Source: Candidatus Staskawiczbacteria bacterium RIFOXYB1_FULL_38_37
Lineage (GTDB): Bacteria; Patescibacteriota; Minisyncoccia; Minisyncoccales; Staskawiczbacteraceae
Reading direction: 5' to 3'
Length of the DNA: 64,000 nt
NCBI GenBank assembly: GCA_001822075.1
Contig: MHPK01000004.1
Span: 71,979 to 135,978 of the forward strand
This document shows, in pieces, positions 2,199-53,556 of the stretch. The position numbers and the translations under genes were made by a program. The first letter of the stretch is position 1. Every line of letters starts with the position of its first letter. The notes under the pieces are model-generated. The model did no database searches and was not told where the DNA came from. It saw only the letters and a list, made by a program, of their open reading frames with translations.

Positions 2199-2211
2199 TG
2201 CAATTTTTTGT

Positions 2212-4017: not shown

Positions 4018-4123
4018 AACAGAAATTTTAAATTATAAATTTTAAATGAAATTATAATGTTTAAATGTTTTAAAATTTAAGAATTTAGTTTTGAATTAAA
4101 ATTTAAAATTTGTTATTTAAAAT

Positions 4124-4789
4124 TTATTTTAGGAGTTCTGGCAATATTTCTGGATAATATCCCACCTCTGCCTGATCCGGATGGTGTATGGCCCAAAAAA
4201 GCTCTATAAGCTCTGGCGTTGTAAGGGGCACAGCCTCCAGCCCGCACCTTCTTAAACCCATTGCAACATATTCCATTCTTTGCCATATTTGAGTTTTGCA
4301 TCTTTGGAACTTGTCGTCATCTAATTTTTGATTTTGTTCTTTTTTACCTGAAAACTGGCTTAACAAATTGAAATTTTTTACAGCTGACCCCACGCCAAAA
4401 ATTTCCATTAAATTATAGGGAACTACCGCATAAAAGTTTTTTGTCATAACCACATCCCCCACAACCATATTTTTAATAAATTCCCTGTAAGAAGAAGTTT
4501 GTTTTCTCAGCAGTTCGTTCGTTTGTTTTTCTTCTAAATCTTTTATGCTGTCTAAATATGGAGTAATGTTTATATTTCTTGACTGAATGACAATTTGGCA
4601 GGAAAAATCCAAAGAATTCAAAAAGCTTTGAAAAGCATATACAATTGCCGTCTGCTCTTCTTCAGATTTTAACGCAAAATTTATTGAGGAAACCATTAAT
4701 ATTCCCCTTATAGAGCTATTTTTTAAAATCAAAACCCCCTCTCTTATATCCTGCACTTCCAAAAATGCTTGTGTTGCGCTCTCGGTCAT
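4124..4789 (-). CDS. Hypothetical T4SS-associated protein (resembles the non-ATPase N-terminal domain of Gram-positive-type VirB4)
   Basis: 221-aa ORF co-oriented with virB4. The N-terminus (FLEVQDIREGVLILKNSSIRGILMVSSINFALKSEEEQ) looks like VirB4 N-domain openings. Assigned by pattern memory only. Confidence 0.55.
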   Translation of the reverse strand: MTESATQAFLEVQDIREGVLILKNSSIRGILMVSSINFALKSEEEQTAIVYAFQSFLNSLDFSCQIVIQSRNINITPYLDSIKDLEEKQTNELLRKQTSSYREFIKNMVVGDVVMTKNFYAVVPYNLMEIFGVGSAVKNFNLLSQFSGKKEQNQKLDDDKFQRCKTQIWQRMEYVAMGLRRCGLEAVPLTTPELIELFWAIHHPDQAEVGYYPEILPELLK

Positions 4790-4857
4790 AATTTTACTAA
4801 TTATAAATTTTAAATTCTAAATTTTAATTGAAAAAACTAATTTTAAAATGTTTAAAT

Positions 4858-5229
4858 TTAATCAGAATTTTTATCCACAGAAGAAATTACTATTTTGGAA
4901 AAAATAAGCGTTAACTCTTGAGCTTCGTTCCAAAGTTTTCTGCACATGTCTGTTTTCTCTGGGTTAGCTTTGGCAATCATTCTTAACCAGTGTTTAGTTT
5001 CTCTTGTTTCTTTTTTGCAGATGCATATTTTATTTCTAAAGTCTTTTTTAGAGCTAGCCCCGTTTGCCTCCATATAATTTGCTCCAACACTCGTTGAAGA
5101 CCTTATTATCTGGCTTACGAGAGGACGGTTTATCTCGTTTTTTTCTAATGTTTTAATAAAGTCAATCATATCTTCGCCAAACCGAGCAGTCCTTTCTTCT
5201 AAGTCATATTTACAATTTGTTTTGTCCAT
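4858..5229 (-). CDS. Four-helix-bundle protein (23S rRNA intervening-sequence protein family)
   Basis: 123 aa with the family signature SSTSVGANYMEANGASSKKDFRNKICICKKETRETKHWL; flanked by inverted AT-rich repeats at 4797-4835 and 5243-5280. Confidence 0.85.
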   Translation of the reverse strand: MDKTNCKYDLEERTARFGEDMIDFIKTLEKNEINRPLVSQIIRSSTSVGANYMEANGASSKKDFRNKICICKKETRETKHWLRMIAKANPEKTDMCRKLWNEAQELTLIFSKIVISSVDKNSD

Positions 5230-5281
5230 TTAATCATTTAAATTTCATTTAAAATTGAAAATTTAAAATTTAAAATTAACT

Positions 5282-5689
5282 TTACTTCGTCCTCAGCTCT
5301 ACTTCTGTTTTTGTTTTTTTAAGCTGGCTTTGCTGAACTTTTAAAACAGGACCCTCTTCTATCTTTTTTATTTGGGCTCTTTTAATGGGCTTGAATGGAT
5401 AAAGTGATTCTTTCTTTTTCCATGTATAATTTTTTCCTCCTGCCATAAATCCTATTGAAGCTAATATCATATTTATTATCGGCACTCCGTTCACCTGCAC
5501 AAAGGCCAGCACCACAGAAACGGCTCCTATTAAAAAACTTGCTATTATAAAAAGAAAAAAGGGCAGCGCATAATACAAAATAAAGCAGATAACTCCTGCT
5601 CCCACCAGATAAAAAAACTGCCGGAAAGATATAAAGAAAGCAATTTTTCCTTCTGCTTCAATAAATTGCGGTATAGGATATTGTTCCAC
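5282..5689 (-). CDS. PrgI/VirB3-like small T4SS membrane protein
   Basis: 135 aa; PIPQFIEAEGKIAFFISFRQFFYLVG motif followed by two TM helices, typical of PrgI-family proteins. Confidence 0.7.
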   Translation of the reverse strand: MEQYPIPQFIEAEGKIAFFISFRQFFYLVGAGVICFILYYALPFFLFIIASFLIGAVSVVLAFVQVNGVPIINMILASIGFMAGGKNYTWKKKESLYPFKPIKRAQIKKIEEGPVLKVQQSQLKKTKTEVELRTK

Positions 5690-5857
5690 TTTTAAATAAT
5701 TTTAAATTATAAATTTTAATTGAAAAACCTAATTTTTAAATGTTTTAAACATTTTAACATTTAAAATTGATTTAAAATTTAAAATTTGTTATTTAAAATT
5801 TTATTCTATTATTATACCATGCAGAAAAAAGTAGTGATAACAAAAGTTTTCAACACC

Positions 5858-5886
5858 TTGACGCTGGTTTATCTTTATGATATAAT
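5858..5886 (+). promoter_or_regulatory. Near-consensus sigma70-type promoter of the SPFH-like gene
   Basis: TTGACG (5858-5863), 17-nt spacer, TATAAT (5881-5886) with TGA immediately upstream; AAGGAGA RBS at 5959-5965 and ATG at 5972. Confidence 0.6.
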
Positions 5887-5971
5887 AAAATATAGAGTTC
5901 GTTGTCAAAAATAGCCGGGGAGTTCTGGCTATCAACGATAGGTACACCTGTTTTCTTGAAGGAGAGAAAAG

Positions 5972-7222
5972 ATGAGAAATTTTTTGATTGGAGTGTTGCC
6001 CGTATGTTTTGTCGCGCTCGTTGTTGGGCTCGGGTTTGGTTTCTACTACCACCCAGTCATTATGACGATACTGGCGATTCTGTTGATCCTGGCGATTCCA
6101 CTTGCTTTACTGGTATGCTGGTTAATCGGTATTATCGGCTTCAAGCGGGTTCCGCCTAAGAAGTTGTTGCTGTTTACCTACGGCGATGATTTAGTCTATG
6201 GCGTAATGAACTTTCCGGGTCGCCATTTTGATCCGAATGGAAGAGTGGCACAGGGACAGGGACCTAGTGAATACTGGTATGGAGATTGCAGGTGGATTAT
6301 TCGCTGGAGGAGATGGGTCTTGTATTTTGGATGGTTTGTTTGGCCCGTATCATACGACGAAAACAACAATCCAGATGGCTTTGGTTTTGACATTTACGTC
6401 GATTTGTCAGATCACTTTGTGACTGTTAATGTCGAAGAAGCTGAGACCAAAGACAACATCCCAGACCCTGATAATCCCGGCGAGATGATTCCGGGCCCTG
6501 CTGCAAGTTACGATGCTCAATGCCCTGGAAGGGTTGTTGACCCTCGCCTGTTCGTCATTGGTTCGCCACCCAACGTTTTTCAGGATGGTATTGCCAGTGT
6601 GTTTGAGGCCATCATGCGCAAATGGGGACGCCTTAAGACCGAGTCAGAGCTGCTTAATGCAGGAGTGAGCGGAGGCGCCAGTGGAATTGGCGCTGAGCTT
6701 CAAGACCCTGCTAAAGTGGACGCCCAATCGGCGTTTGACATTATGTCAGAACGATGGGGCTTTGAGCTCGCGATAGAGGATATAACCATCAGGAGCATAA
6801 CCTTCAATAGATCTTACCAGGATGCTCGACAGGATGTTAGGCTGGAAGCTATGAAAGCTCAGGCTGCGGATGCCCGTATATACGGGCCCGTAAAAAGAGC
6901 GATTGCTGCTGGCATCGACCCCAAGGATGCAGTAAGATTACGCGGCTTGGATATGGGCGCCACGGCTGATCTGTCGGACAGAAAAGAGACGCTTAAGGTG
7001 GAGGGATTGGAGGGTATCCAGTATCTGTCCACTGGTGGCGCGGGTGGAATGGGAGTTATGCTTCCGGCCCCTCAACCGAAAGGAGGTAAAAATCCCGGCG
7101 GAAATCCGAAAGGAGGCAATCCCGGTGGTGGGCAAAAGGACGTGGCCCAACTGGCTGAAGAGCACTTCCGTCAGAATGGTAAATATCCCCCTTGGGATCC
7201 CTTGAAGCGAACGCCGAACTAA
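5972..7222 (+). CDS. SPFH/band-7-like membrane protein, compositionally foreign (about 50 percent GC)
   Basis: 416 aa; two N-terminal TM helices. SPFH-like blocks are present (GFKRVPPKK..; ETKDNIP..VVDPRLFV; WGFELAIEDITIRSITFNRSYQDARQDVRLEAMKAQA), with a Gly/Pro/Lys-rich tail. Codon usage (CTG, GCG, GGC) is unlike the neighbours. Opposite strand to the T4SS genes. Confidence 0.6.
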   Translation: MRNFLIGVLPVCFVALVVGLGFGFYYHPVIMTILAILLILAIPLALLVCWLIGIIGFKRVPPKKLLLFTYGDDLVYGVMNFPGRHFDPNGRVAQGQGPSEYWYGDCRWIIRWRRWVLYFGWFVWPVSYDENNNPDGFGFDIYVDLSDHFVTVNVEEAETKDNIPDPDNPGEMIPGPAASYDAQCPGRVVDPRLFVIGSPPNVFQDGIASVFEAIMRKWGRLKTESELLNAGVSGGASGIGAELQDPAKVDAQSAFDIMSERWGFELAIEDITIRSITFNRSYQDARQDVRLEAMKAQAADARIYGPVKRAIAAGIDPKDAVRLRGLDMGATADLSDRKETLKVEGLEGIQYLSTGGAGGMGVMLPAPQPKGGKNPGGNPKGGNPGGGQKDVAQLAEEHFRQNGKYPPWDPLKRTPN

Positions 7223-7244
7223 GGGTTCTGTTTATCAGAATCAA

Positions 7245-7275
7245 AAAGGGCAAGCACAATGTGTAATTGCCCTTT
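7245..7275. terminator. Hairpin between convergent genes (possible bidirectional terminator)
   Basis: AAAGGGCAA (7245-7253) pairs with TTGCCCTTT (7267-7275) around a 13-nt loop; T-rich on the 3' side. Confidence 0.45.
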
Positions 7276-7289
7276 TATCTTACAAATTT

Positions 7290-7775
7290 TTATTCAATTG
7301 ACTCCCTATATCTATCCGGCCCGTCAGATTTTTTATTTATAGTTAGCGCTGATAGTGGTGGCACTGATTTTTTAGGAAGTTCAGATTCAAGTCTAAGATT
7401 ATTTTCAATATCTGACGACATTGGCAATTTTTCCGATGTTGTTTTTTTTATTTCTTTTGGTTTCTCTTCCTGTTTTTTTGTATACAAAAGAGACCCTCTA
7501 TCTTTTTGTGACAAGTTATTCCATAGAGTTGGGATAAGGGTATTTTTAATTTCTTCAGCTATTTGTTTGGCCGTTTTTTGAGGAACGCCAAGTTCTTTTT
7601 GTATAGAATCTATCAATTCTTTTTCTGATATTTCAGATCGGGAAAAAAACATTGTTAATTTTTCTATCAAATATTTAACATCGGTATCATTCAAATTGTA
7701 TTTTTTGATTATATCGGCGAGCATCAAATCAGACTTAGGGCTAAATGTTGATGATATACTTTTTGTTATATCCAT
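7290..7775 (-). CDS. Hypothetical protein within the T4SS-like locus
   Basis: 161-aa ORF, AT-rich like the host genome, 13 nt downstream of the VirB6-like gene. No motif recognised. Confidence 0.6.
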   Translation of the reverse strand: MDITKSISSTFSPKSDLMLADIIKKYNLNDTDVKYLIEKLTMFFSRSEISEKELIDSIQKELGVPQKTAKQIAEEIKNTLIPTLWNNLSQKDRGSLLYTKKQEEKPKEIKKTTSEKLPMSSDIENNLRLESELPKKSVPPLSALTINKKSDGPDRYRESIE

Positions 7776-7788
7776 ATTATTTTATTTT

Positions 7789-9882
7789 TTAAAGTGTTCT
7801 CGCTTCGTCTAATACTTCTTTTAATCTTCTTTGTTTATTGGTATTACCAGCAGCGGCAGTATGAGCACTTTCTATAACCGACCCGGGTGTTACTACGTTG
7901 GACCCGGCCGTCATAAGCCCGGCCATTTGTCTTATTATCTCTCTATTAGGATGTGCCGCTCTTCCAGTAGCCACATCTCCTGCATCAAGCATCTTAAATA
8001 CTTTCATGTCATCGCCGGTTCGGCTTAAAAGGAATTCTTGAAGATCATCTGTGTGTAAGTTGCCCAAATTAGTATTTGCGCGGGCTTCTTCGTCCATACT
8101 TCCCCAGTTTTGCTTCAATTTTATGTAGTCTGCTTTTTGCTCGGCTCTTGTTATATCGGTTGCACTAAGAACTCTCCTGGCTGCAGCCATTCTTTCAGCT
8201 GGCGAAGCTGTTCCTGCGGTGCCTGCTGGTAAAGCGGCATCAATTGTGGCTTTATGTCCCAAAGTTGTTAAAGCTGCATCCACACCTTTATCGCCAAGTC
8301 CAGCTAACTCATAATATTTATCTTCGGCATCTTTTCTCATATTCTTTGGAGCCTTGCCGGATTTTTCTGCAGTTTCCAGAGCATCATTCATTCTATAATA
8401 ATCAATCTGTCCGGTTGCTTGATTTTTGAACGCATCATGGAGTTTACCCTCGCTGGTAGCCGCTATTATTGCAGCGGTTCTGTCTATACCTGTGCCATTA
8501 TGAATTTTATCAAAAACCCTTTGTTGGTCTTGTTTGTTTCCTGATTTAAGCGCAGCTGTTAATGCCTTTATTGCTTCTGCAAGAGCTTTGTCATCTTTAG
8601 CAGCTCGTGTGCCAACTGGTATTGCTCCTGCCCCCTCCAATCCACGGCCAAAAGCAGACCTTGTTTTTTCTAGTTTTCCTTTAAACACATCGGCCCTGGC
8701 TTGTTGTTTGTTTGCTGCTCCAGAAACTGCACCCAATATTCTTCCAACCCTCGTAGTGCTTCCCCCTGCCTTATTACCTGCCCATCCCGTAATTTTGCCT
8801 AAAGTACCTGCTGATTTTGTCAGTGCGCCAAGTCCCATTTTCATTGCTGTGCCTTTATGTTTGTTTGCAAAGTTTGTTATAACACTTGATCCCATCGCTG
8901 AAAATTGTAAAGACACCAAAAACCCGGCGATTAAAAACATAGAAGGAACTAAAATTATACTGAAAGCATTTGATATGTAACTAATGTAAGTTGAGGTATT
9001 TGCTAAGTCTAATTCACTATGCTTCGAGAATGAACTATGTATTAATGTCGATCCTATATGATAAAATAGTCCTGCTGGTAAAATAATAATACACCATTGA
9101 AAGAAGTTTTTCCACCACATTTGGAAAATACCTCGTGAAAAAGGAAATACATAACAAACAAAGGCTAAAGGAGATAATATCACCAACATCCAGAGGGCGA
9201 TTACTCTCATTAAAAGTAAGAAAAAATATAAGATGTTAACGAGACCCGCCGCAACCCAAAACAGCACTAATCCGATTATTTTTGCAGCAAAATTTAAAAC
9301 ATTATCAGTTCCCAAATTTGTTAATATGGTCCATAAGCCCGATATTTCTGGAAACCACCCTGCCCAAAAATTATTAGTTTTGAAAAAATATCTCATTAGA
9401 ATATTCGAGCCATCAATAAAAATTCCGCAGATCAATAGCGAGAAGTTTATCAAAATGGTAGCTATTATTAGATTGATCAAAACTTTTTTAGAGCCGTATG
9501 ATTCAATTCTCAAGGTAAAAGCAATACCGACGATAACAAAACCCAAAACAACAAACATATTGGCGAGGTCTCTTACAATCGGCCATCCGAGATTTACAGC
9601 ATCGCTGTATATATAGGGCGTTCCAGATATCGCAAAAGCTATCGCTGCCTGCAAAAGAATGTTTGATATTGTAACAAAGAGCAATGCGAAAAGTAGCGGA
9701 ACCCAAAAAAAATAAGCTAGAATGCCCGCTAAAATTCCGTTTGCTACTACATTTGTTACCGAATCTAAAAGACCCGCAGAAGCAAATTGTGGAATAATAA
9801 GAAAAAATCCAACAATAAGCACGATGTAAGGTAGTGGTTTATTCTTTACAATAAATTTTGAATCAGAATTAAGAGATTTCAT
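7789..9882 (-). CDS. VirB6/TrbL-like polytopic membrane protein with a long Ala/Gly-rich soluble C-terminal extension
   Basis: 697 aa. The first ~330 aa contain about 8 hydrophobic helices; the C-terminal ~360 aa are soluble and encoded by markedly more GC-rich DNA (7789-8900). Position is next to other T4SS genes. Confidence 0.55.
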   Translation of the reverse strand: MKSLNSDSKFIVKNKPLPYIVLIVGFFLIIPQFASAGLLDSVTNVVANGILAGILAYFFWVPLLFALLFVTISNILLQAAIAFAISGTPYIYSDAVNLGWPIVRDLANMFVVLGFVIVGIAFTLRIESYGSKKVLINLIIATILINFSLLICGIFIDGSNILMRYFFKTNNFWAGWFPEISGLWTILTNLGTDNVLNFAAKIIGLVLFWVAAGLVNILYFFLLLMRVIALWMLVILSPLAFVCYVFPFSRGIFQMWWKNFFQWCIIILPAGLFYHIGSTLIHSSFSKHSELDLANTSTYISYISNAFSIILVPSMFLIAGFLVSLQFSAMGSSVITNFANKHKGTAMKMGLGALTKSAGTLGKITGWAGNKAGGSTTRVGRILGAVSGAANKQQARADVFKGKLEKTRSAFGRGLEGAGAIPVGTRAAKDDKALAEAIKALTAALKSGNKQDQQRVFDKIHNGTGIDRTAAIIAATSEGKLHDAFKNQATGQIDYYRMNDALETAEKSGKAPKNMRKDAEDKYYELAGLGDKGVDAALTTLGHKATIDAALPAGTAGTASPAERMAAARRVLSATDITRAEQKADYIKLKQNWGSMDEEARANTNLGNLHTDDLQEFLLSRTGDDMKVFKMLDAGDVATGRAAHPNREIIRQMAGLMTAGSNVVTPGSVIESAHTAAAGNTNKQRRLKEVLDEARTL

Positions 9883-45000: not shown

Positions 45001-45620
45001 TAAAGATTCAGCCCGCCTCGCGTCAAGGCGGGCCAGAGAACAAGAAAGCTGCCAAGAAGGGTATAATGGAATATAAAATTCCTGGCAGAATTGCCATGCT
45101 TGTTGAAAAAGGCCAGGATATAAAAGAAAACCAGCCTTTGTGCGAAGGTTCGCTTGATTTAAAAAAGCTGTACAAATCAGCAGGAGTTGAGGAAACCCAG
45201 AGGTATATTTTGAAGGAAGTGCAAAAAATTTATTCTTCGCAGGGGGTTGATATTCATGACAAACATATTGAAACTATAATTCAAAAAATGTTTTCAAGAA
45301 TAAGAGTGAAAGAAGAAGGAGATTCTGATTGGATAAGAGGAGAGGTTGTTGAAAAAGCTATTTTTGAAGAAGAGGCGGATGCTCTCAAAAAATCCAAGAA
45401 AACTCCGCCGGCAGGAACTCAAATATTACTTGGAATTTCAGAAGTTGCATTAAATTCGGAATCATTTTTGTCAGCAGCTTCCTTTCAGCAGACTTCAAGG
45501 GTTTTGATTAAAGCATCTTTAGAAGGCAAGGAAGACAGGTTGCGCGGATTAAAAGAAAACGTAATTATAGGAAAACTTATACCTGTTGGAACAGGATTTA
45601 TCCCGAAAGAAAAAAAATAA
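42015..45620 (+). CDS. rpoC: DNA-directed RNA polymerase beta-prime subunit
   Basis: 1201 aa; zinc motif CACGKYKRIRYKGVVCDRCGV and catalytic NADFDGDQMAV. Confidence 0.95.
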   Translation: MRVLDLESIRIKLASPDDIMSWSHGEVIKPETINYRTQKPEKDGLFDERIFGPEKDYECACGKYKRIRYKGVVCDRCGVEVTKSSVRRERMGHIKLYAPVSHIWFLRGVPSRMGLVLDKSSQQLEKVIYFSSYIVTKVDSEARDRILDAIEEEYKTKVKKEKTEAAKNELRIAREKAKEEVLEIKPLKILSEVVYHALSMKYGEVFEAGTGAEVVREIFSKVDLKKGVEELSKEAKEAPPAMKKKVLRRLKLFQGMLKAGVRPEWMFLEILPVLPPDLRPMVQLDGGRYASSDLNDLYRRVINRNNRLKYLQEISAPSVIVRNEKRMLQEAVDALIDNEMRKGVTTTATTGGKRLLKSLAAMLAGKQGRFRQNLLGKRVDYSGRSVIAVGPELHFSQCGLPKTLALEIFKPFVVKRVLDKELAYNIRGASRLIEEKVPEVWAILEEIVKEKLVLLNRAPTLHRLGIQAFRPVLTEGETIKLHPLVCEAFNADFDGDQMAVYLPLSDEAQKEAKEIMLSTLNLLRPATGLPVMGPFRDIALGCYFLTKLNAVEDKKQLKVYSSGSEAITAYEYGFLGLNDVIKVQNPKSDKDELIETSVGRLILNSSLPHDYFYINKLVDNKGLKQLVREVIEKYPNEEAVVILDKIKHLGFEYCTLSGISWGMDDLIVPPEKGKLIGEAEEEVRRIDSHFEKGLLSSEEKTSQKILVWQSVKTKIEALLKDTLPAEGPVMSIINAGARGTWAQPVQMAGMKGLVNNPAGDIIELPIKSSFAEGFNVLEYFISTHGARKGTADTALRTSSAGYLTRRLVDVAHDVIITEEDCGDKTGFVVYKKDAEAIDQDFIFKIVGRTTVENIETKAEGSERGRRILAKKGELIDWKTADEILKSGIERVVVRSPLACKLGQGVCQKCYGWDLGKNKLVKLGEAVGIVAAQAIGEPGTQLTLRTHHLGGIVGAGDITQGLPRIEEIFESRAPKGEAIMSLTDGKVIAIDEEKRIVKIQPASRQGGPENKKAAKKGIMEYKIPGRIAMLVEKGQDIKENQPLCEGSLDLKKLYKSAGVEETQRYILKEVQKIYSSQGVDIHDKHIETIIQKMFSRIRVKEEGDSDWIRGEVVEKAIFEEEADALKKSKKTPPAGTQILLGISEVALNSESFLSAASFQQTSRVLIKASLEGKEDRLRGLKENVIIGKLIPVGTGFIPKEKK
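45011..45033. repeat. GC hairpin inside rpoC
   Basis: GCCCGCC-TCGCGTCAA-GGCGGGC; encodes PASRQGGP. Confidence 0.85.
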
Positions 45621-45633
45621 TTAGTAATTAGAA

Positions 45634-45675
45634 ACAAAAACAGCCCCGCCAAGGCGGGGCTGTTTTTGTTTTGGT
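45634..45675 (+). terminator. rpoC intrinsic terminator
   Basis: ACAAAAACAGCCCCGCC-AA-GGCGGGGCTGTTTTTGT followed by TTTT. Confidence 0.85.
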
Positions 45676-45685
45676 AAAACATACC

Positions 45686-45735
45686 AGTCGGTGGGGTGTC
45701 CGACACCCCACCGACTCACGTGATGAGTCACGTGA
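45686..45735. promoter_or_regulatory. 14-bp perfect hairpin plus two TCACGTGA palindromes upstream of the orphan gene promoter
   Basis: AGTCGGTGGGGTGT-CCG-ACACCCCACCGACT (45686-45716), then TCACGTGA at 45716-45723 and 45728-45735, 12 bp centre to centre. Confidence 0.55.
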
Positions 45736-45766
45736 GGGCGTGCGAGGCGAGAGCAGGTTTGAATAC

Positions 45767-45795
45767 TTGACAAGGTGGTTGATATATGATATAAT
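45767..45795 (+). promoter_or_regulatory. Consensus sigma70-type promoter of the orphan gene
   Basis: TTGACA, 17 nt, TATAAT. The -10 context TATGATATAAT..ATATAG is nearly the same as at 5876-5895. AAAGGAG RBS at 45847-45853. Confidence 0.65.
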
Positions 45796-45859
45796 TAATA
45801 TAGTAAGGTAAAGAATGTTTCTTTGCCGTTTGACAACCTTTTTTTTAAAGGAGCTGACA

Positions 45860-46360
45860 ATGGATACGTCCAACAGCACCGCCCTGCACGTGAGGCCGTT
45901 AGACCTGAGATTTTCCGAGGACCCCCAAGACCAGGTCATTGCAGAAGACTGCAAGAGGGTTGTGGGGCTGATTATGGAGCAGCTCAGACCGATACTCCGT
46001 TACATGTGTATTCCAATGGGATTCAATGGCGAGAAGAGAGCTAAAACTATTCGTTGTGTAAGAGTCATTGACTTTGTTTCTTCCGGAGTAATTTTTTCTG
46101 CTGGTTTTGTGCTCAACCTTTTTTTGGATGAAAAAGGGATATTTTTTCTGGCATCCTGTCCAAAAAATGAAAAGCCGACATTGTGGAACAGAGTAAATGG
46201 CAACCCCGAAGAATGGGAGGAAGCGCCTTTTGACGAATTGTTGGGGGGTCTGCAAGAGCTTCTCCGTCGGGCAACGGAAAAACACCAAGAGCACGTTAAG
46301 GTTACCGCAAAGCGCAAAGAGCTTTTCGACAAATTGATCGCTGTCCTGAAGCAAGGCTGA
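45860..46360 (+). CDS. 166-aa orphan protein, compositionally foreign (about 47 percent GC)
   Basis: ATG 45860 was chosen because of the RBS (MDTSNSTALHVRPLDLRF..). No motif recognised. The overlapping antisense ORFs are GC-driven shadows. Confidence 0.65.
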   Translation: MDTSNSTALHVRPLDLRFSEDPQDQVIAEDCKRVVGLIMEQLRPILRYMCIPMGFNGEKRAKTIRCVRVIDFVSSGVIFSAGFVLNLFLDEKGIFFLASCPKNEKPTLWNRVNGNPEEWEEAPFDELLGGLQELLRRATEKHQEHVKVTAKRKELFDKLIAVLKQG

Positions 46361-46388
46361 TAGGACCTAGGCTCACGGCGAGCTCTAT

Positions 46389-46436
46389 GCCGCTTCTGGA
46401 TTCTTCAGAATCTGGAAGCGGCTTTTTTTTTTTTTT
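46389..46436 (+). terminator. Strong intrinsic terminator of the orphan gene
   Basis: GCCGCTTCTGGATT / AATCTGGAAGCGGC stem (two G-U pairs) followed by 14 T. Confidence 0.85.
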
Positions 46437-46602
46437 ATTGTTTGTTAGCAGAAGATAAACAAGGCATAACCGACTAAATTGGTCGGTTATGAATGTAAAG
46501 CATAATCTTCTCTATAATTAAAATTAAAAAGTTAAAATTAAGAAAAAATAACATGACTTAAACTTGTTTTTTTAGCTCTAACAGGGTAAACTTAAAATAA
46601 TT

Positions 46603-47286
46603 ATGGCTTCAAGCAAAGAGACAATTATTATTTCGCTGGGCGGGAGCTTGGTGGCTCCCAATGACATTGATATAGGGTTTTTGAAAAATTTTAAGCATTC
46701 TTTAAAAAAATATATTGGATCAAGAAGATTTTTTATTTTAGTAGGAGGAGGAAAAATATGCAGAAATTACCAGAAAGCGCTTTTGGAGTTTGGAGCTAAA
46801 TCAGCTGACAGAGATTGGATTGGCATTAATGTTTCAAAATTAAATGCAGAAGTTGTAAAACAATTATTTTCTGGATATTCTTATGAAAAAATTATTACAG
46901 ACCCGAATAAAAAAGTAAAAACAAATAAAAATATAATAGTGGGAGCTGGCTGGAAGCCGGGCTGGTCAACAGATTACGATGCTGTTTTAATGGCAAAAAA
47001 TAATAAAGCAGATACTATTATAAATCTTACAAACATAGATTATGTTTATGATAAAAATCCCAGCCAGTTTTCTGATGCAAAACCTTTAAAAGAAATTGAT
47101 TGGAAAAGCTTTAAACATATTGTGGGGGATAAATGGACTCCCGGGCTTTCAATGCCTTTTGACCCAAAAGCCTCAAAACTTGCTGAAAAGTTTAAATTGA
47201 AAGTAGCTATTATAAACGGAAAATATTTAGATCGGCTGGAAGATTTTTTAAACAACAAGCCGTTTGTTGGAACTATAATTAGTTAA
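46603..47286 (+). CDS. pyrH: UMP kinase, archaeal-type
   Basis: 227 aa; amino-acid-kinase fold (IIISLGGSLVAP..FFILVGGGKICRNY..GWKPGWSTDYDAVLMA). Confidence 0.8.
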   Translation: MASSKETIIISLGGSLVAPNDIDIGFLKNFKHSLKKYIGSRRFFILVGGGKICRNYQKALLEFGAKSADRDWIGINVSKLNAEVVKQLFSGYSYEKIITDPNKKVKTNKNIIVGAGWKPGWSTDYDAVLMAKNNKADTIINLTNIDYVYDKNPSQFSDAKPLKEIDWKSFKHIVGDKWTPGLSMPFDPKASKLAEKFKLKVAIINGKYLDRLEDFLNNKPFVGTIIS

Positions 47287-47295
47287 AATAAGATT

Positions 47296-47736
47296 ATGGA
47301 TAAAAGGCTTTTATTATTAGTCATTATATTAACATCATTAATTATAATTTTAATTATCAATATGGGTATATTCTCATTTATAAAAAATAAAAAAACTAAA
47401 ACTTTTTTGAATTATCAAAAAGTGACTTTGCAACAAATTGAACAAGAAAAAGATAAACTTAATGGCAAAAAAGTTGAATATACTGGTGAATGCGAATTGG
47501 CTTTTGAAATTTCTTTATTAGACCGAAAAATTTGGATAGAACCATCGGTAAATTATGTAACTGGAGAAGGATTGCCTAATTTTCACAATGGCTCTTATCA
47601 TGCAAAAATAAGAGTTTTTGGAACATTGTTAGCAGAAAAAGGTGCTCATTACGGACATCTTGGCATGGAGTTATACCAAATAAATGCAGACAAGATAGAA
47701 CTTTTAGAAAGATTACCAATAATTCCGCAAGAGTAA
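47296..47736 (+). CDS. Small N-terminally anchored protein (cassette ORF A)
   Basis: 146 aa; anchor MDKRLLLLVIILTSLIIILIINMGIFSF. Confidence 0.6.
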   Translation: MDKRLLLLVIILTSLIIILIINMGIFSFIKNKKTKTFLNYQKVTLQQIEQEKDKLNGKKVEYTGECELAFEISLLDRKIWIEPSVNYVTGEGLPNFHNGSYHAKIRVFGTLLAEKGAHYGHLGMELYQINADKIELLERLPIIPQE

Positions 47737-47766
47737 ATTATAATAAACAAAATTAATAAAGATTTA

Positions 47767-47886
47767 ATGCCCAAACAAGAAATTAAAATTTTAATAGAGA
47801 AAGCAATCAAAAATTTGATAAAACAGGAGGAGTATAAAGGTATCTCTATTGCAGATATTTTAGTTGAACGCCCCGATGAAAAGTAG
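47767..47886 (+). pseudogene. Truncated argS 5' fragment (39 codons)
   Basis: MPKQEIKILIEKAIKNLIKQEEYKGISIADILVERPDEK*. Compare the real ArgRS N-terminus MKEEIKKLIEKAIKDLQKEKKL. Confidence 0.75.
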
Positions 47887-47966
47887 CCGTTATCAACGGA
47901 AAATATTTAGACCGGCTGGAATATTTTTTAAACAACAAGCTGTTCATCGGTACAACCATTAATTAA
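47883..47966 (+). pseudogene. Duplicated pyrH 3' fragment (27 codons plus stop)
   Basis: VAVINGKYLDRLEYFLNNKLFIGTTIN*; 70/84 nt identical to 47203-47286. Confidence 0.8.
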
Positions 47967-47972
47967 ATTTGT

Positions 47973-48410
47973 ATGAGCACAAGGCTTTTGATTTTAGCCA
48001 TTATATTATCAATATTGATTATAATTTTAATAACTATGGGAATATTTTCATTTTTAAATAAAAATAAAGAGAAGGCATCAGAAACATTTAAGTTTGGTTC
48101 TTCTCCAGAATCAAAGGGCTATAAACTTTTAACAAATGTTTCTGAATTTTCAAAAGAATATCAGGAAGCTTTGAATACAGTGATAGCCAAATTAAAAAGC
48201 GAAAAAGATAATCCAAATGATTATTATGTAAAGATAAAACAAGCAGAAGAATATAATACTAATACCATAATAGTCTCTATTATTCACAAAAATACTTTTG
48301 AGACAAAAGACCCGAACAAAGTTATAGCTGGCAACCCAAGCGGTAAAGACAGGAATATTTATTATAATTTAGATGTTAAAATAATTACAAAAGATTTATT
48401 GACACGATAA
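47973..48410 (+). CDS. Small N-terminally anchored protein (cassette ORF B)
   Basis: 145 aa; the anchor MSTRLLILAIILSILIIILITMGIFSF is similar to ORF A, and the rest is unrelated. Confidence 0.6.
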   Translation: MSTRLLILAIILSILIIILITMGIFSFLNKNKEKASETFKFGSSPESKGYKLLTNVSEFSKEYQEALNTVIAKLKSEKDNPNDYYVKIKQAEEYNTNTIIVSIIHKNTFETKDPNKVIAGNPSGKDRNIYYNLDVKIITKDLLTR

Positions 48411-50068
48411 TGAAAGAAGAAATAAAAAAACTAATTGAAAAAGCAATAAAAGACTTGCAGAAAGAGAAAAAATTGCCGGAATTTCAAATTCCAAATATTT
48501 CGATTTTTAATTCAAAAATTTTGTCGTACGGAGATTATAATACAGACATACTTTTTAAATTAAATAAAATATACAATATATCACCAGAAGTAATTGTTAA
48601 ACCATTGTTTAAAAAAATTACTAGCAGTAATACTTACGATAAATTTGATGATGTTGAGCTACTTAACGGCTTTATCAATTTTTTTATTAAAGATGAGTAT
48701 CTGCAAAATCAGCTGGAAGTAATTTTAAAGGAAAAAGATAAATTTGGAAATTTAAATTTAGAAGAAAAAGTTCACCCAGTTAAATCCGCCAAAGGCGGTA
48801 CTTCGCTAAAAGCGAAGCAATTTAACCGGGTAAATATAGAATTTATTTCAGCAAATCCGACAGGGCCTTTGACCTTGGGAAACGGAAGGGGCGGATTTTG
48901 CGGAGATGCTCTGGCAAATATTTTAGAAAAAGCAGGATATAAAGTTTCAAGAGAATATTATGTTAACGATACGGGAAATCAAATTAACAAATTAGGACAT
49001 TCTGTAATTGGAGACGCAGAAGCTGTTTATAAAGGAGAATATATAAATGAATTGCAGAAAAAAATAAAAGGCAATAACCCGCAGGACATTGGAGAAAAAG
49101 CGTCAAAAGTTATTTTTGAAAAAATGATAAAGCCGTCTGTAAAAAAAATGGGAGTTAAATTTGACACATGGTTTTCAGAAAAAACTTTGTATAAAAACAA
49201 AGAAGTGGATGAGGCCATAAACGAATTATCAAAAAAAGGATTTACTTATGAAAGCGAGGGCGCTTTGTGGTTTAGATCAAAAGATTTGGGGGACGACAAA
49301 GACAGGGTTTTAATAAGAGCCGATGGGATTAAAACTTATTTCGCTTCGGATATTGCCTATTTAAAAAACAAATTTAAAAGAGATTTTAACAAATTAATTA
49401 TATTTTTGGGGGCTGACCATTACGGCTATGTGGCTCGCTTAAAAGCTGCCTCGCACGCTTTAGGTTTTGGCGAAGACAGCATTGATGCTATTGTAATGCA
49501 GTTGGTTCGTCTTTTTGAAAAAGGCAAAGAAGTTAGAATGTCAAAAAGAAGCGGCATTTATGTGACAATAGACGAATTAATAGATGAGGTTGGGTTGGAT
49601 GTTGCCAGATTTTTCTTTTTAATGATAGGCCCAAACACGCATTTAAATTTTAATTTGGATTTAGCTAAAGAAAAATCAGAGAAAAATCCGGTTTTTAAGG
49701 TTCAGTACGCATATGCTCGGATTTGCTCAATTATTCGCAAATCCAAGAATTTTCAATTTTCAATTTTTAATTTTCAATCAAATTATAACTTAAAATTATT
49801 AAATGAAAAAAGCGAATTGGAATTGATCAAGCAATTAATTAGGTTTCCGGAAATTGTTGAGGACATTGCCAAAGATTATCAAGTTCAAAGATTGCCGAAA
49901 TATGCCATGGAATTAGCCGACTCTTTTCATAAATTTTATGAAAATTGCCAGGTAATTTCAAAAAATAAAGAATTAACAAAAGCCCGGCTTTCTCTTATTT
50001 CGGCAACAAAAATTGTTTCAAAAAATACTTTAGATTTAATGGGTATATCAACGCCCGAGAGAATGTAA
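48410..50068 (+). CDS. argS: Arginyl-tRNA synthetase
   Basis: 552 aa; EFISANPTGPLTLGNGRG, MSKRSG, C-terminal anticodon-binding domain. Contains repeat insertions at 48775-48830 and about 49745-49790. Confidence 0.93.
   Translation: MKEEIKKLIEKAIKDLQKEKKLPEFQIPNISIFNSKILSYGDYNTDILFKLNKIYNISPEVIVKPLFKKITSSNTYDKFDDVELLNGFINFFIKDEYLQNQLEVILKEKDKFGNLNLEEKVHPVKSAKGGTSLKAKQFNRVNIEFISANPTGPLTLGNGRGGFCGDALANILEKAGYKVSREYYVNDTGNQINKLGHSVIGDAEAVYKGEYINELQKKIKGNNPQDIGEKASKVIFEKMIKPSVKKMGVKFDTWFSEKTLYKNKEVDEAINELSKKGFTYESEGALWFRSKDLGDDKDRVLIRADGIKTYFASDIAYLKNKFKRDFNKLIIFLGADHYGYVARLKAASHALGFGEDSIDAIVMQLVRLFEKGKEVRMSKRSGIYVTIDELIDEVGLDVARFFFLMIGPNTHLNFNLDLAKEKSEKNPVFKVQYAYARICSIIRKSKNFQFSIFNFQSNYNLKLLNEKSELELIKQLIRFPEIVEDIAKDYQVQRLPKYAMELADSFHKFYENCQVISKNKELTKARLSLISATKIVSKNTLDLMGISTPERM
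48775..48830. repeat. 56-nt composite structured element inside argS
   Basis: Outer stem CCCAGTTAAA/TTTAACCGGG (9 of 10 pairs) encloses the hairpins TCCGCC-AAA-GGCGG and CTTCGC-TAAAA-GCGAAG; encodes HPVKSAKGGTSLKAKQFNR. Confidence 0.85.
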
Positions 50069-50652
50069 TGAAACTTAATAATAAATATTTTTTATTGAGG
50101 CACGGACAGACAATTTATCAAAAAAACGGCATAAAGGTAAATTATCCTGCAGGGTCTGACCCCACTTTGTCTATTACCCCGGAAGGAGAAGAAATGATAA
50201 AAAAAGCTGCTGAAGATTTAAAAACAAAAAATATAAGCATGATTTTTTCTTCTCCTGCTTTGCGAACAAAACAGTCATCAGAAATTGCAGGAAAGATATT
50301 GGCCGTTAAAGAAATAAATTATGACAGCAGGCTGGTAGATATTAATATGGGAGTGTTTGCAGGCAAAACTCACAAAGAATACGAGGACTTTTTTTCAAGC
50401 AAAATGGAAAGGTTTGAAAAAAAGCCTGAAGGCGGGGAAAACTGGACAGATATTTTAGCCAGATTAAGGTCTTTTTTTGATGACGTTGAAAAAAAATATA
50501 AAGGAGAAACAATTTTGATTGTAAGCCATGCAGACCCTTTATGGCTTTTGGCTGGCTTGATAAAAGGTTTCAAAACAAATGAGGAATTTTTTTCGACCAG
50601 AAAATCCGGGGATAATTTGTACCCAGATGTGGGAGAATTAATAAGGATATAA
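50068..50652 (+). CDS. Histidine phosphatase (phosphoglycerate mutase superfamily)
   Basis: 194 aa; RHG motif LLRHGQT and SHADPL. Confidence 0.8.
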   Translation: MKLNNKYFLLRHGQTIYQKNGIKVNYPAGSDPTLSITPEGEEMIKKAAEDLKTKNISMIFSSPALRTKQSSEIAGKILAVKEINYDSRLVDINMGVFAGKTHKEYEDFFSSKMERFEKKPEGGENWTDILARLRSFFDDVEKKYKGETILIVSHADPLWLLAGLIKGFKTNEEFFSTRKSGDNLYPDVGELIRI

Positions 50653-50655
50653 AAT

Positions 50656-53556
50656 ATGTATAATTTTCCTCAAAAAGAACAAAAAATACTGAAATTTTGG
50701 CAAGAGAATAAAATTTTTGAAAAGCTGAGAGAAAAAAATAAAGGCAAAGAGCGCTGGTCGTTTTTGGACGGTCCGATTACAGCTAATAATCCAATGGGCG
50801 CGCACCATGCATGGGGCAGAAGCTACAAAGACATATTTCAGAGATATAAGGCAATGCAGGGGTATGAGCAACGGTATCAAAACGGCTTTGACTGCCAGGG
50901 GCTTTGGGTTGAAGTGGAAGTTGAAAAAGAGCTTGGATTTAAAAATAAAAAAGATATTGAAAAATACGGAATTGATAAGTTTGTTGAAAAATGCAAAGAA
51001 AGAGTTAAAAAATATTCAGCAATTCAAACCCAGCAGTCAATAAGGTTGGGCCAGTGCATGGATTGGGAAAATTCTTACTACACAATGTCTGATGAAAATA
51101 ATTATGCTATTTGGCACTTTTTAAAGAAATGCTGGCAGGACGGATATTTGTATAAGGGGAGAGATTCTGTTCCATGGTGCCCAAGATGCGGGACCGCAAT
51201 TTCACAGCACGAAATTTTAACAGAAGAATATAAAGAGATTACCCATAAAGCGATTTATTTTAAGCTTTTTATTATAGATGGAAAACTAAAAGGAAAAAAA
51301 TTTTTGGTTTGGACAACTACCCCGTGGACTATGCCGGCTAATGTTGCTTTAATTGTAAACCCTGATTTTGAATATGGAATTTATAAAGGCAATGGCGAAG
51401 AATTAATTTTATTGAAATCGCTTGCAGAAAAGATTTTAGGCAAAGGCTATGTTTTAGAAAAGAAAATTAAAGGCAAGGATTTAAAGGGAACAAAATATGA
51501 GGCTCCCTTTGATGATTTGCCGAGGGTTGGAAAAGCAAAACAAGAAAATCCAAAAACATTTCATACGGTTGTTTTAGACAAAGATTTGGTAACCGAGGTT
51601 GAAGGCACAGGAATTGTGCATTGCGCTCCGGGAGCCGGAGAAGAAGATTTTAAAATAGGGCAAAAAGAAAATTTAGCGGTAATAGATGTTATTGACGAAT
51701 CAGCTGTTTATTTAGACCTTATGCAAGAATTTTCCGGGAAAAATGCGAAAGAAAATCCTGAAATAATTTTTGATTATCTTAAAAAATATAAAAATGGCGA
51801 GTTTTTATTTAAGACAGAAAATTATGCCCACAGATATCCGACTTGCTGGAGATGCAAGACAGAATTAGTTTGGAGGGTTGTTGACGAGTGGTATATTTCA
51901 ATGAAAAAGCTGAGAAAACCGCTGGTTGAAATAACTAAAAAAATAAACTGGGTTCCTTTTTTTGGCAAAGAAAGAGAGTTAGACTGGTTAAAAAATATGC
52001 ACGACTGGCTGATTTCAAAAAAAAGATATTGGGGATTAGCTTTGCCTATTTTTGAATGCCCAAAATGCCAGAATTTTGAAGTTATAGGGTCTAAAGAAGA
52101 ATTAAAAAAGCGGTCCGTAGAAGGCTGGAATAAGTTTGAGGGCAATTCTCCCCACAAGCCATGGATAGACAATGTAAAAATAAAATGTAAAAAATGCGGT
52201 GAATTAATTTCTAGGATACCGGATGTTGGAAATCCATGGCTGGATGCGGGCATAGTGCCGTATTCTACTATGAGATATTTTTCAGACAAAAAATATTGGA
52301 AAAAATGGTTTCCTGCAGAATTGGTTTGCGAATCATTTCCCGGACAATTTAAAAACTGGTTTTATTCTTTGCTTGTGATGTCAGCTGTTTTGGAAAATAC
52401 AGCTCCTGCAAAAACAATTTTTGGCTTTGCATCAGTAAGAGATGAAAAAGGAGAGGAAATGCACAAGTCAAAGGGCAATGCAATTTGGTTTGACGAGGCA
52501 GTAGAAAAAATCGGAGCAGACCCAATGAGGTGGATGTATTCAAGGCAGAACCCGGCAGAAAATCTTAACTTTGGATACAACACAGCCGAAGAAATAAAAA
52601 GAAAACTGCTCACTTTATACAACTCTTATGTGTTTTTTAATACTTATGTAAAAAAAGAAGAATTATCGGAAAAATTGCTTGAAGCAAAATCAGAAAATAT
52701 TTTAGATAAATGGATTTTGTCTAAAATCGACCATTTAACCAGCGCATCAGAATTTAATTTAGACAAGTATGATGCTGCCAGAGCAGTCTTAGCTATTGAA
52801 GATTTTTTTATTAATGATTTATCTTTATGGTATATAAGACGTTCAAGAAAAAGGTTTCGCGAGGACAGCTTAGAAAAGCTTCAAGCCGTTGCCACGTTTT
52901 ATCACATTCTTTTGCATACGACAAAATTAATAGCTCCGATAATGCCGTTTTTTGCGGAAGAAATGTATCAAAATTTGAAAATAAATAATATGCCAGAATC
53001 TGTTCATTTGTGCGATTGGCCGAAATTGGAAGAAGACAACCGCACCGATATAGAATTAGAAAATAAAATGGAAGAAGCAAGGTCTGTTGTCAGTTTAGCT
53101 TTAGCTGAAAGGACTAAACATCAAATAAAGGTAAAACAGCCTCTTTTGCAATTGACAATTAAAAATGAAAAATTAAAAATAAAAGCAAGCAGCGAATTGC
53201 TTGGATTGATTAAAGACGAAGTAAATGTTAGAGAGATTATATTCAACTCAGGCATAGAAAATGAGGTTGAGCTTGATTTGAACATAACAGGCGAACTTAA
53301 AGAAGAAGGCATTGTGAGAGAAATTGTCCGCAATATACAGGGCATGAGAAAGCAGGCAGGCCTGACCCCAGAAGACAGAATTTCCGTGAGCATTACAGGA
53401 GACGATTATTTAGTTGAAATTATAAAAAAGAATGAGAAAATTTTACTGAAAGAGTTCAGGGCCGCAGAAATTATTTTTAGCAATACAAATTTTAAAGAAG
53501 AAAAAGAAGTTTTAATAGACAGCAAAAACGCATTATTTAAAATTAAAAAAAAATAA
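50656..53556 (+). CDS. ileS: Isoleucyl-tRNA synthetase (type 2)
   Basis: 966 aa; PMGAHHAWGRS (HIGH region), WTTTPWTMPAN editing domain, MHKSKGN (KMSKS). Confidence 0.95.
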   Translation: MYNFPQKEQKILKFWQENKIFEKLREKNKGKERWSFLDGPITANNPMGAHHAWGRSYKDIFQRYKAMQGYEQRYQNGFDCQGLWVEVEVEKELGFKNKKDIEKYGIDKFVEKCKERVKKYSAIQTQQSIRLGQCMDWENSYYTMSDENNYAIWHFLKKCWQDGYLYKGRDSVPWCPRCGTAISQHEILTEEYKEITHKAIYFKLFIIDGKLKGKKFLVWTTTPWTMPANVALIVNPDFEYGIYKGNGEELILLKSLAEKILGKGYVLEKKIKGKDLKGTKYEAPFDDLPRVGKAKQENPKTFHTVVLDKDLVTEVEGTGIVHCAPGAGEEDFKIGQKENLAVIDVIDESAVYLDLMQEFSGKNAKENPEIIFDYLKKYKNGEFLFKTENYAHRYPTCWRCKTELVWRVVDEWYISMKKLRKPLVEITKKINWVPFFGKERELDWLKNMHDWLISKKRYWGLALPIFECPKCQNFEVIGSKEELKKRSVEGWNKFEGNSPHKPWIDNVKIKCKKCGELISRIPDVGNPWLDAGIVPYSTMRYFSDKKYWKKWFPAELVCESFPGQFKNWFYSLLVMSAVLENTAPAKTIFGFASVRDEKGEEMHKSKGNAIWFDEAVEKIGADPMRWMYSRQNPAENLNFGYNTAEEIKRKLLTLYNSYVFFNTYVKKEELSEKLLEAKSENILDKWILSKIDHLTSASEFNLDKYDAARAVLAIEDFFINDLSLWYIRRSRKRFREDSLEKLQAVATFYHILLHTTKLIAPIMPFFAEEMYQNLKINNMPESVHLCDWPKLEEDNRTDIELENKMEEARSVVSLALAERTKHQIKVKQPLLQLTIKNEKLKIKASSELLGLIKDEVNVREIIFNSGIENEVELDLNITGELKEEGIVREIVRNIQGMRKQAGLTPEDRISVSITGDDYLVEIIKKNEKILLKEFRAAEIIFSNTNFKEEKEVLIDSKNALFKIKKK

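Follow-up and report, generated by a model that had tools for sequence, protein, structure and literature searches.

Two anchored-protein genes, two gene stubs and one illegitimate joint between pyrH and argS in a Candidatus Staskawiczbacteria bacterium

In the genome of Candidatus Staskawiczbacteria bacterium RIFOXYB1_FULL_38_37 (assembly GCA_001822075.1), the housekeeping genes pyrH and argS are separated by two small genes of different kinds, between which lie a fragment of argS and a fragment of pyrH. How did such an arrangement arise, and where did the additional gene come from? We analysed a stretch of 64,000 nucleotides (nt) of contig MHPK01000004.1 (positions 71,979 to 135,978), hereafter the window, to which all coordinates refer. 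The order along the locus is pyrH - ORF A - argS' / 'pyrH - ORF B - argS, where ORF stands for open reading frame, argS' for a stub of the argS 5' end and 'pyrH for a stub of the pyrH 3' end. An earlier note on this DNA had described the order as an A-B-C'/A'-B-C series with one joint; this topology was indeed present, with the joint at about 47880-47883, and all coordinates of that note held. The ancestral locus was one operon, pyrH - ORF B - argS, and in the lineage of the window a single illegitimate joint was formed between an argS allele and a pyrH allele. As to its origin, we lean, with some reserve, towards import: one illegitimate joint at the sequence AAAG would have stacked two diverged alleles of the locus, in an event similar to homology-facilitated illegitimate recombination (HFIR).

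Both flanking genes are intact and, like all features of the locus, lie on the plus strand. pyrH (46603-47286) encodes an archaeal-type UMP kinase of 227 amino acids (aa), with a score of 192 bits against TIGR02076 (cut-off 158) and a match to PF00696, and argS (48410-50068) encodes an arginyl-tRNA synthetase (ArgRS) of 552 aa (TIGR00456, 358 bits; PF03485, PF00750 and PF05746). The 3' end of pyrH (47203-47286) is repeated at 47883-47966, with exactly 70 of the 84 nt identical. The homology begins three bases earlier, at 47880, where ungapped extension stops, and it extends across the spacer into ORF A or ORF B, where it covers the first ~33 codons. Direct-repeat copy 1 (47200-47394) thus comprises the last 87 nt of pyrH, a 9-nt spacer and the signal-anchor codons of ORF A, and copy 2 (47880-48068) the 'pyrH stub, a 6-nt spacer and the signal-anchor codons of ORF B. 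The two copies are 78% identical over 195 nt, with two small indels (blastn E = 1e-38).

The argS' stub (47767-47886) is an ATG-started ORF of 39 codons, corresponding to the first 39 codons of an arginyl-tRNA synthetase allele. Over 54 nt, it is 74% identical to the resident gene (47773-47826 versus 48413-48466), and its product matches residues 2-32 of the ArgRS of the window (BLASTP E = 2e-4). A closer match was obtained with the N-terminus of the ArgRS of the relative L032, to which all 39 residues align without a gap (BLASTP E = 5e-9). The stub was previously said to be more canonical than the live gene, and this was confirmed: its "ILVERPDEK" is nearer to the canonical "ILIERPKEK" of L032 than to the resident "ISIFNSKIL". 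It also resembles the type found in contig L015, and the resident argS is idiosyncratic at this stretch. Neither stub gave a match in Pfam, for which both are too short; the blastn and BLASTP values given above (E = 1e-38 and E = 5e-9) rule out a chance similarity of the fragments to pyrH and argS, and their homology to these genes, on which the reading of the earlier note depended, was thus established by alignment.

The two stubs meet at the joint itself. The reading frame of argS' extends to 47883, and its TAG stop codon (47884-47886) is out-of-frame pyrH sequence (AAA GTA GCx). The joint thereby fuses argS codon 39 to pyrH codon -28, at the AAAG of 47880-47883. These four bases are derivable from either parent, being common to the pyrH context (TTGAAAGTAGC) and to the stub (GATGAAAAG); the microhomology therefore amounts to 4 nt at most, given a donor sequence that is itself inferred. 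Beyond the joint lies the 'pyrH stub (47880-47966), made up of the final 28 codons of a pyrH allele and their stop codon; a start codon is lacking, and a TGA (47877-47879) closes the frame upstream. The stub and the end of the live pyrH differ at 14 positions, which we polarised with five relatives. Six substitutions were found in the stub only, including D to Y and P to L changes at residues invariant in every live copy, from which we consider the stub to be decaying as a pseudogene. Further differences correspond to alleles that are both present in relatives, the stub ending in ...IGTTIN* as in L014 and the live gene in ...VGTIIS* as in L018-20. A palindrome (CCGTT-ATC-AACGG, 47888-47900) was made by three of the substitutions in the 'pyrH stub and is absent from the live copy; it was flagged on the minus strand by the terminator scan and is probably due to chance.

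We regard both stubs, the 39-codon argS' and the 28-codon, start-less 'pyrH, as non-functional scars. Retention for function, with the 39-aa ArgRS N-terminal peptide acting as a small protein or 'pyrH serving as promoter or translation-initiation context for ORF B, appears quite improbable. It would account for the ATG and open frame retained by argS', for the native 6-nt spacing between 'pyrH and the start of ORF B, also seen in relatives, and for the persistence of a scar of about 200 nt although genomes of the Candidate Phyla Radiation (CPR) are compact. However, 'pyrH is start-less and changed at invariant residues, the stop codon of argS' is an accident of the joint, and constraint is not measurable, as no variation exists among the known copies. 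The region held 16 promoter-like matches, versus 12.3 ± 3.4 in shuffled sequence, and inside the locus neither promoter nor terminator signals rose above chance, the closest strong terminator (46389-46422) lying upstream of pyrH.

A joint of this kind could also be produced during assembly, if an assembler had strung together sequences of two strains that lived side by side and differed in their slot genes. Strains of this clade are indeed found mixed within single aquifer samples; moreover, one scaffold carrying the joint, L011, may be a strain chimera, and another, L010, holds an N-gap plus unrelated sequence. Nevertheless, exact look-up of the ORF A and ORF B proteins in public assemblies located the two-slot arrangement in at least nine of them: two metagenome-assembled genomes (MAGs) at NCBI (GCA_001820225.1 and GCA_003518025.1), two JGI metagenomes, three ENA assemblies and two Logan assemblies. 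Over stretches of up to 7 kb, their identity to the window was 99.8-100%, and they came from different samples, projects and assemblers, MEGAHIT k141 among them. Furthermore, no more than 4 nt are common to the parents of the joint, too few for any k-mer graph to bridge, and the 'pyrH stub has substitutions of its own. The identical joint in at least nine assemblies effectively refutes an artefact, to which we attach next to no probability.

Some observations were made on individual scaffolds. In L010, which is a public scaffold of this organism, the 5' end of argS is interrupted by an N-gap and, after it, about 220 nt of unrelated sequence (497-725); this layout is a scaffolding error and not a variant. 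In L001-L008, up to 7 kb of the region 45001-52000 of the window was 100% identical across unrelated projects and samples, which indicates a highly clonal and widely sampled population. L011 (ENA ANAN16-1_SAMN03202994 scaffold_34763) is of the window type from 46751 to about 48140 (1.4 kb), with one single-nucleotide polymorphism; this shared segment includes the 3' two-thirds of pyrH, ORF A, both stubs and the 5' end of ORF B. Its flanks are diverged, the left one being 75-85% identical to the window and the right one 98% identical to L016. L011 is either a true inter-lineage recombinant or a strain-chimeric assembly.

The two genes that share the interval do not encode copies of one protein. 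ORF A (47296-47736; 146 aa) and ORF B (47973-48410; 145 aa) have only the membrane anchor in common according to BLASTP, as had been noted from the sequence, and their ectodomain-coding parts share no similarity at the DNA or protein level. An AlphaFold2 model of ORF A, based on an alignment of 16 family members, reached a predicted local distance difference test (pLDDT) score of 90.9 and consisted of a transmembrane helix (residues 3-39) followed by a five-stranded barrel. When this model was compared with the PDB by Foldseek, the matches (probability 0.99-1.0; E about 3e-3 to 3e-2) were the oligonucleotide/oligosaccharide-binding (OB) fold anticodon-binding domains of asparaginyl-, aspartyl- and lysyl-tRNA synthetases (AsnRS, AspRS and LysRS) and the DUF3299 protein PA4066 (PDB 4hsp; probability 0.99, TM-score 0.39). 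With periplasmic or surface OB-fold proteins, among them PA4066 and the BOF family, ORF A shares the character of a small, secreted or anchored, five-stranded OB barrel; unlike DUF3299/BOF members, it has no Pfam membership and the resemblance is at the fold level only, with neither the BOF nor the DUF3299 Pfam family above its gathering threshold in ORF A or in 15 homologues. For ORF B, the model was of moderate confidence (pLDDT 65) and showed a transmembrane helix and one helix packed on four strands, the conserved alpha+beta domain; at this confidence, the fold search against the PDB returned no significant match.

An exhaustive HMMER search with the ORF A ectodomain yielded 37 representative homologues with at most 58% identity, whereas a word-indexed search had returned a 99% variant only. 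The 15 homologues that were retrieved were either anchor-plus-domain proteins of 116-147 aa or longer proteins with this domain at the C-terminus. Its own family of homologues, the confident OB fold and the anchor-only similarity rule out that ORF A is a diverged or frameshifted ORF B. Neither protein matched a family above threshold in Pfam, NCBIfam or PADLOC, and no toxin, immunity or defence domain was detected in them with these collections. Both genes are intact, in a tightly packed operon lacking an internal terminator, and both are probably expressed, judging by this layout. The two products are putative exoproteins. Basic residues around the helix of ORF A are more numerous after it (KNKKTK) than before it, and other family members have more basic N-terminal tails.

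To determine which of the two units was added, we compared the locus with its closest relatives, which a pyrH profile scan of GTDB species representatives placed in Candidatus Staskawiczbacteria (Parcubacteria, CPR). Homologues of ORF B (56-87% identity, with a well conserved ectodomain) were found on contigs L014, L015, L016, L017 and L018-L021, representing five related lineages (L014, L015/L021, L016, L017 and L018-20). All of these contigs share the order pyrH - ORF B homologue - argS, in which there is one slot and stubs are absent; copy 2 of the direct repeat is collinear with them. The pyrH - ORF B - argS order is therefore the ancestral arrangement of the sub-clade, ORF B the ancestral occupant, and the ORF A unit an addition. 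The gene junctions differ as well: the spacer after pyrH is 9 nt in unit 1 versus 6 nt in unit 2, and a gap of 30 nt separates ORF A from argS', while the stop codon of ORF B overlaps the argS start (TAATG), the same as in relatives. When spacer and anchor were aligned (98 bases), copy 2 matched L021 at 92, L015 at 90, L017 at 89 and L014 at 83 positions; copy 1 matched copy 2 at 76 and each of the orthologues at 77-79. Copy 2 accordingly falls within the group of single-slot orthologues, to which copy 1 is an outgroup.

The two units may thus come from different lineages, an origin that we favour, without holding it proven, on the grounds that the ectodomain of ORF A belongs to a separate, conserved OB-fold family and is not a diverged ORF B. 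According to the import model, the left unit, composed of the 3' part of pyrH, ORF A and argS', would most likely derive from a diverged lineage whose slot gene combined an OB-fold ectodomain with the same anchor. Linear DNA would have been taken in and held at one end by homologous pairing in pyrH, and its far end would have been joined illegitimately to a site 5' of the resident pyrH stop codon. As a result, the incoming allele would have been added and the resident one not replaced. The model predicts a donor with the order pyrH - ORF A - argS, whose argS would start with MPKQEIKILIEK. Signs of recombination in the region include the mosaic argS N-domain among relatives, the two argS types found at one position, and the L011 segment. 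Since the direct repeats are now only 78-84% identical, the arrangement is stable.

The same order would also result from an old tandem duplication within the genome (pyrH 3' end - ORF B - argS 5' end) by unequal exchange between sister chromosomes, after which the ectodomain of copy 1 was replaced by an OB-domain cassette from a paralogue sharing the anchor; the relatives would never have had the duplication or would have lost it scarlessly. We consider this possible but the less likely course. The topology is exactly that of a tandem duplication, the multigene family defined by the anchor "ITMGIFSFLNK", whose members carry ORF A- or ORF B-type C-terminal domains, offers ready homology for domain swaps, and a repeat-mediated collapse would restore a scar-free pyrH - ORF B - argS. 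However, the spacer and anchor of copy 1 are as far from copy 2 as from the orthologues of other lineages. The ORF A - argS' junction and argS' itself also differ from their resident counterparts, which would require replacement into the stub or a later replacement of the N-terminus of the live argS. Import is more economical, because a single event between diverged alleles explains all of these features, while duplication followed by replacement needs at least two.

Several points nevertheless weigh against import. The predicted donor arrangement, pyrH - ORF A - argS, was not found in the collections searched. The closest relatives of ORF A (46-58% identity) sit elsewhere in their genomes and, on the contigs that were fetched, never between pyrH and argS; similarly, a metagenome scan with a five-sequence ORF A profile gave three loci, none of them in the pyrH-argS slot. 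Sliding identity of the live pyrH against eight relatives revealed no switch of nearest relative, the sequences being few, short and about equally distant. The phylogenetic signal for copy 1 rests on 84-98 nt, and its outgroup position could also result if copy 1, once duplicated within the genome, had evolved about 4-5 times faster. Finally, the single-slot relatives do not prove that the duplication is young, as scarless loss of a unit by repeat recombination is easy. The proposal of the earlier note that the second unit came from a different strain can thus be retained in part: the outgroup position of copy 1, the separate OB family and the differing junctions speak for it, no donor and no breakpoint in pyrH were found, and the added unit is the left one, that of ORF A.

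We then considered whether the interval between pyrH and argS is a site of exchange in other genomes. The pyrH - argS - histidine phosphatase synteny was conserved in 29 Staskawiczbacteria loci with both genes. In 24 of these, pyrH abuts or nearly abuts argS and the junction is empty; in the other five it is occupied, each time differently. Anchored proteins of 138 aa and 295 aa were found in L028 and L044, respectively, and L029 encodes a protein of 194 aa in which the same anchor motif (MNKRFLILVIVLIILIVILIIMGIFSY...) is combined with a third ectodomain. L026 carries an intact PD-(D/E)XK nuclease-like gene (PDDEXK_3, GxxExxY-type; 1250-1645 of that contig), and L035 a PDDEXK_3 gene of the L026 type (4718-5110) that is split by a stop codon or a frameshift. 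Genes have thus been inserted or replaced at this junction repeatedly, and the presence of different ectodomains on one conserved anchor, which in this slot carries ORF B-type, OB-type and L029-type domains, fits a cassette-like exchange.

This comparison of spacers among relatives, which had been suggested as a check, gave a divided answer on whether the gap behaves as an exchange slot for small anchored exoproteins. The 29 loci include at least five different occupants, three of them anchored and one of those with the same anchor; however, 24 of the loci are empty, two occupants are of the PD-(D/E)XK type, and all assemblies of the organism of the window are identical, so that neither variation within the population nor a sign of ongoing exchange was seen. 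Support for the idea is therefore partial.

The repeated acceptance of insertions at this junction, namely the PD-(D/E)XK gene of L026, its broken counterpart in L035 and the unrelated anchored genes of L028 and L044, would also be expected if ORF A had been inserted as a site-specific mobile cassette, integron-like or as a small selfish element, that targets the pyrH-argS junction. We judge this very unlikely. No integrase, transposase, attC-like site or terminal inverted repeat was found in 45.5-51 kb, and the locus has no recombinase gene and no border repeats other than those derived from the genes. The duplicated flanks stem from two different genes (87 nt and about 117 nt) in a head-to-tail junction and are not a target-site duplication, and no stubs, scars or repeats were detected in the other occupied slots.

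Variability extends beyond the slot into argS. The segment 48490-48667 (codons ~28-86), which forms the right-hand edge of the variable region, could not be aligned to any close relative (L011, L014 and L016-L021; gaps in blastn), whereas both of its flanks are 84-95% identical. The relatives carry a different, shorter allele of the ArgRS N-domain ("...DFSVEVPSEKSHGDYS..."), and that of the window ("ISIFNSKILSYGDYNTD") is unusually diverged, with a GC content of 24-27%. Across Staskawiczbacteria contigs L022-L051, we also observed two types of argS at this position, 63-71% versus about 25% identical to the ArgRS of the window. This split was not correlated with pyrH identity, which suggests in-place replacement of the essential argS.

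A multigene family is recognisable by the anchor "ITMGIFSFLNK"; its members are modular anchored proteins whose C-terminal domain is of the ORF A (OB) or the ORF B type. On L072, a CPR contig with NusB and RNase III, nine consecutive anchored paralogues with C-termini of either type were observed (515-7894). On L075 (716-1985), L076 and L079 (2065-3339), an anchor-plus-OB gene lies beside a longer anchored paralogue, which in L075 ends in an ORF B-type domain (46% identity). In L079, the anchored genes are flanked by those for ribosomal protein L15e and an ATP-dependent DNA ligase (confirmed by Pfam), and the flanks of L075 appear to be the same by eye; because of these L15e-like and ligase neighbours, both were taken to be archaeal contigs. 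Such neighbourhoods point to a family that would be common to CPR bacteria and DPANN-like archaea. A more far-reaching reading, which we consider doubtful, is that this family forms a diversification system, of which the pyrH-argS junction would be only one site; the anchor and the adjacent ends of core genes would serve as homology arms, and ectodomain cassettes (OB-type, ORF B-type and others) would be swapped or stacked across lineages, even across domains of life, as surface variation of episymbionts. The window would then be a rare stacking intermediate, and L011 a real recombinant in which a 1.4-kb module of two genes moved as a unit.

In its wider context, the locus is part of the series rpoC, a 181-aa ORF, pyrH, argS, histidine phosphatase and ileS. 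The GC content is 23-30% in the slot and the argS N-domain, versus 33-37% in the core genes. Between rpoC and pyrH, we observed a GC-rich island (45700-46450; 43-49% versus about 30-36% around it), which is probably a foreign insertion. It holds the 181-aa ORF (45815-46360), for which Pfam and PADLOC gave no match, as well as a perfect TTGACA-17-TATAAT promoter (45767-45795), hairpins (45632-45671 and about 45685-45720) and the strong terminator mentioned above. Upstream of pyrH, L014 and L015 carry a DUF5674 gene and a 110-aa gene, and L011 diverges from the window here too. An Rfam scan of the region gave no family at threshold; sub-threshold matches were limited to 45559-45716, downstream of rpoC, and a chance one at 50203.

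Overall, illegitimate recombination has left a base-resolved and datable footprint at this locus of a CPR bacterium that is uncultured; recombination mechanisms in the CPR are known by inference only. The locus shows how a second, putative surface-protein gene can be gained by a streamlined genome while the first one is kept and, for Staskawiczbacteria, it draws attention to a local recombination hotspot at the pyrH/argS boundary that takes in the N-terminal domain of ArgRS. It also exposes a modular anchored family, with OB-type and alpha+beta ectodomains on CPR and archaeal contigs and no Pfam, NCBIfam or PADLOC match, which may matter for host attachment. A scar that stacks two alleles at a small variable slot is a known kind of event and involves no new mechanism.

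The closest parallel is HFIR, known from Acinetobacter, Streptococcus pneumoniae and Pseudomonas stutzeri (de Vries & Wackernagel 2002; Prudhomme et al. 2002; Meier & Wackernagel 2003, as cited in PMC5361080). As in HFIR, one flank (pyrH) is homologous and the other end lies at a microhomology of a few bases, putatively foreign DNA is added beside the resident sequence, and the stretch between the presumed crossover points is duplicated. The AAAG, with up to 4 nt on an inferred donor, falls within the about 3-10 nt of microhomology typical of HFIR. Unlike described cases, the event is deduced here from a natural footprint alone, and the homologous crossover in pyrH was not located.

An HFIR model has been published for the stacked effector-immunity modules of type VI secretion system (T6SS) clusters in V. 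cholerae, in which a conserved upstream anchor pairs, the far end joins illegitimately, and the new allele is added while the old one is pushed downstream (PMC5361080). The orphan C-terminal tips of Rhs and contact-dependent growth inhibition (CDI) systems, cited in the same article, form comparable arrays of orphan modules. The pyrH-argS locus resembles these arrays in its constant 5' part and variable 3' part, with alleles stacked in tandem and fragments left as scars. It differs from them in that the scars come from flanking housekeeping genes and not from the polymorphic gene, both stacked genes are complete, there are two members only, and no toxin or immunity domains were detected.

The A-B-C'/A'-B-C order, the direct orientation and the single novel joint are those of a classical duplication by unequal crossing-over. 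In contrast to a strict tandem duplication, the interiors of the units are not copies of each other, since the ectodomains differ in fold and in their sets of homologues. Unlike an integron or another site-specific cassette site, the locus has neither a recombinase nor border repeats that act as recombination sites. Replacement-type flexible genomic islets, such as capsule or O-antigen loci, lie between conserved core genes and are exchanged via flanking homology. Like these islets, the pyrH-argS interval is a short, lower-GC, lineage-variable region bracketed by core genes; unlike them, it is tiny (0-0.9 kb, one gene) and empty in most genomes, and its variability reaches into the N-terminal domain of argS.

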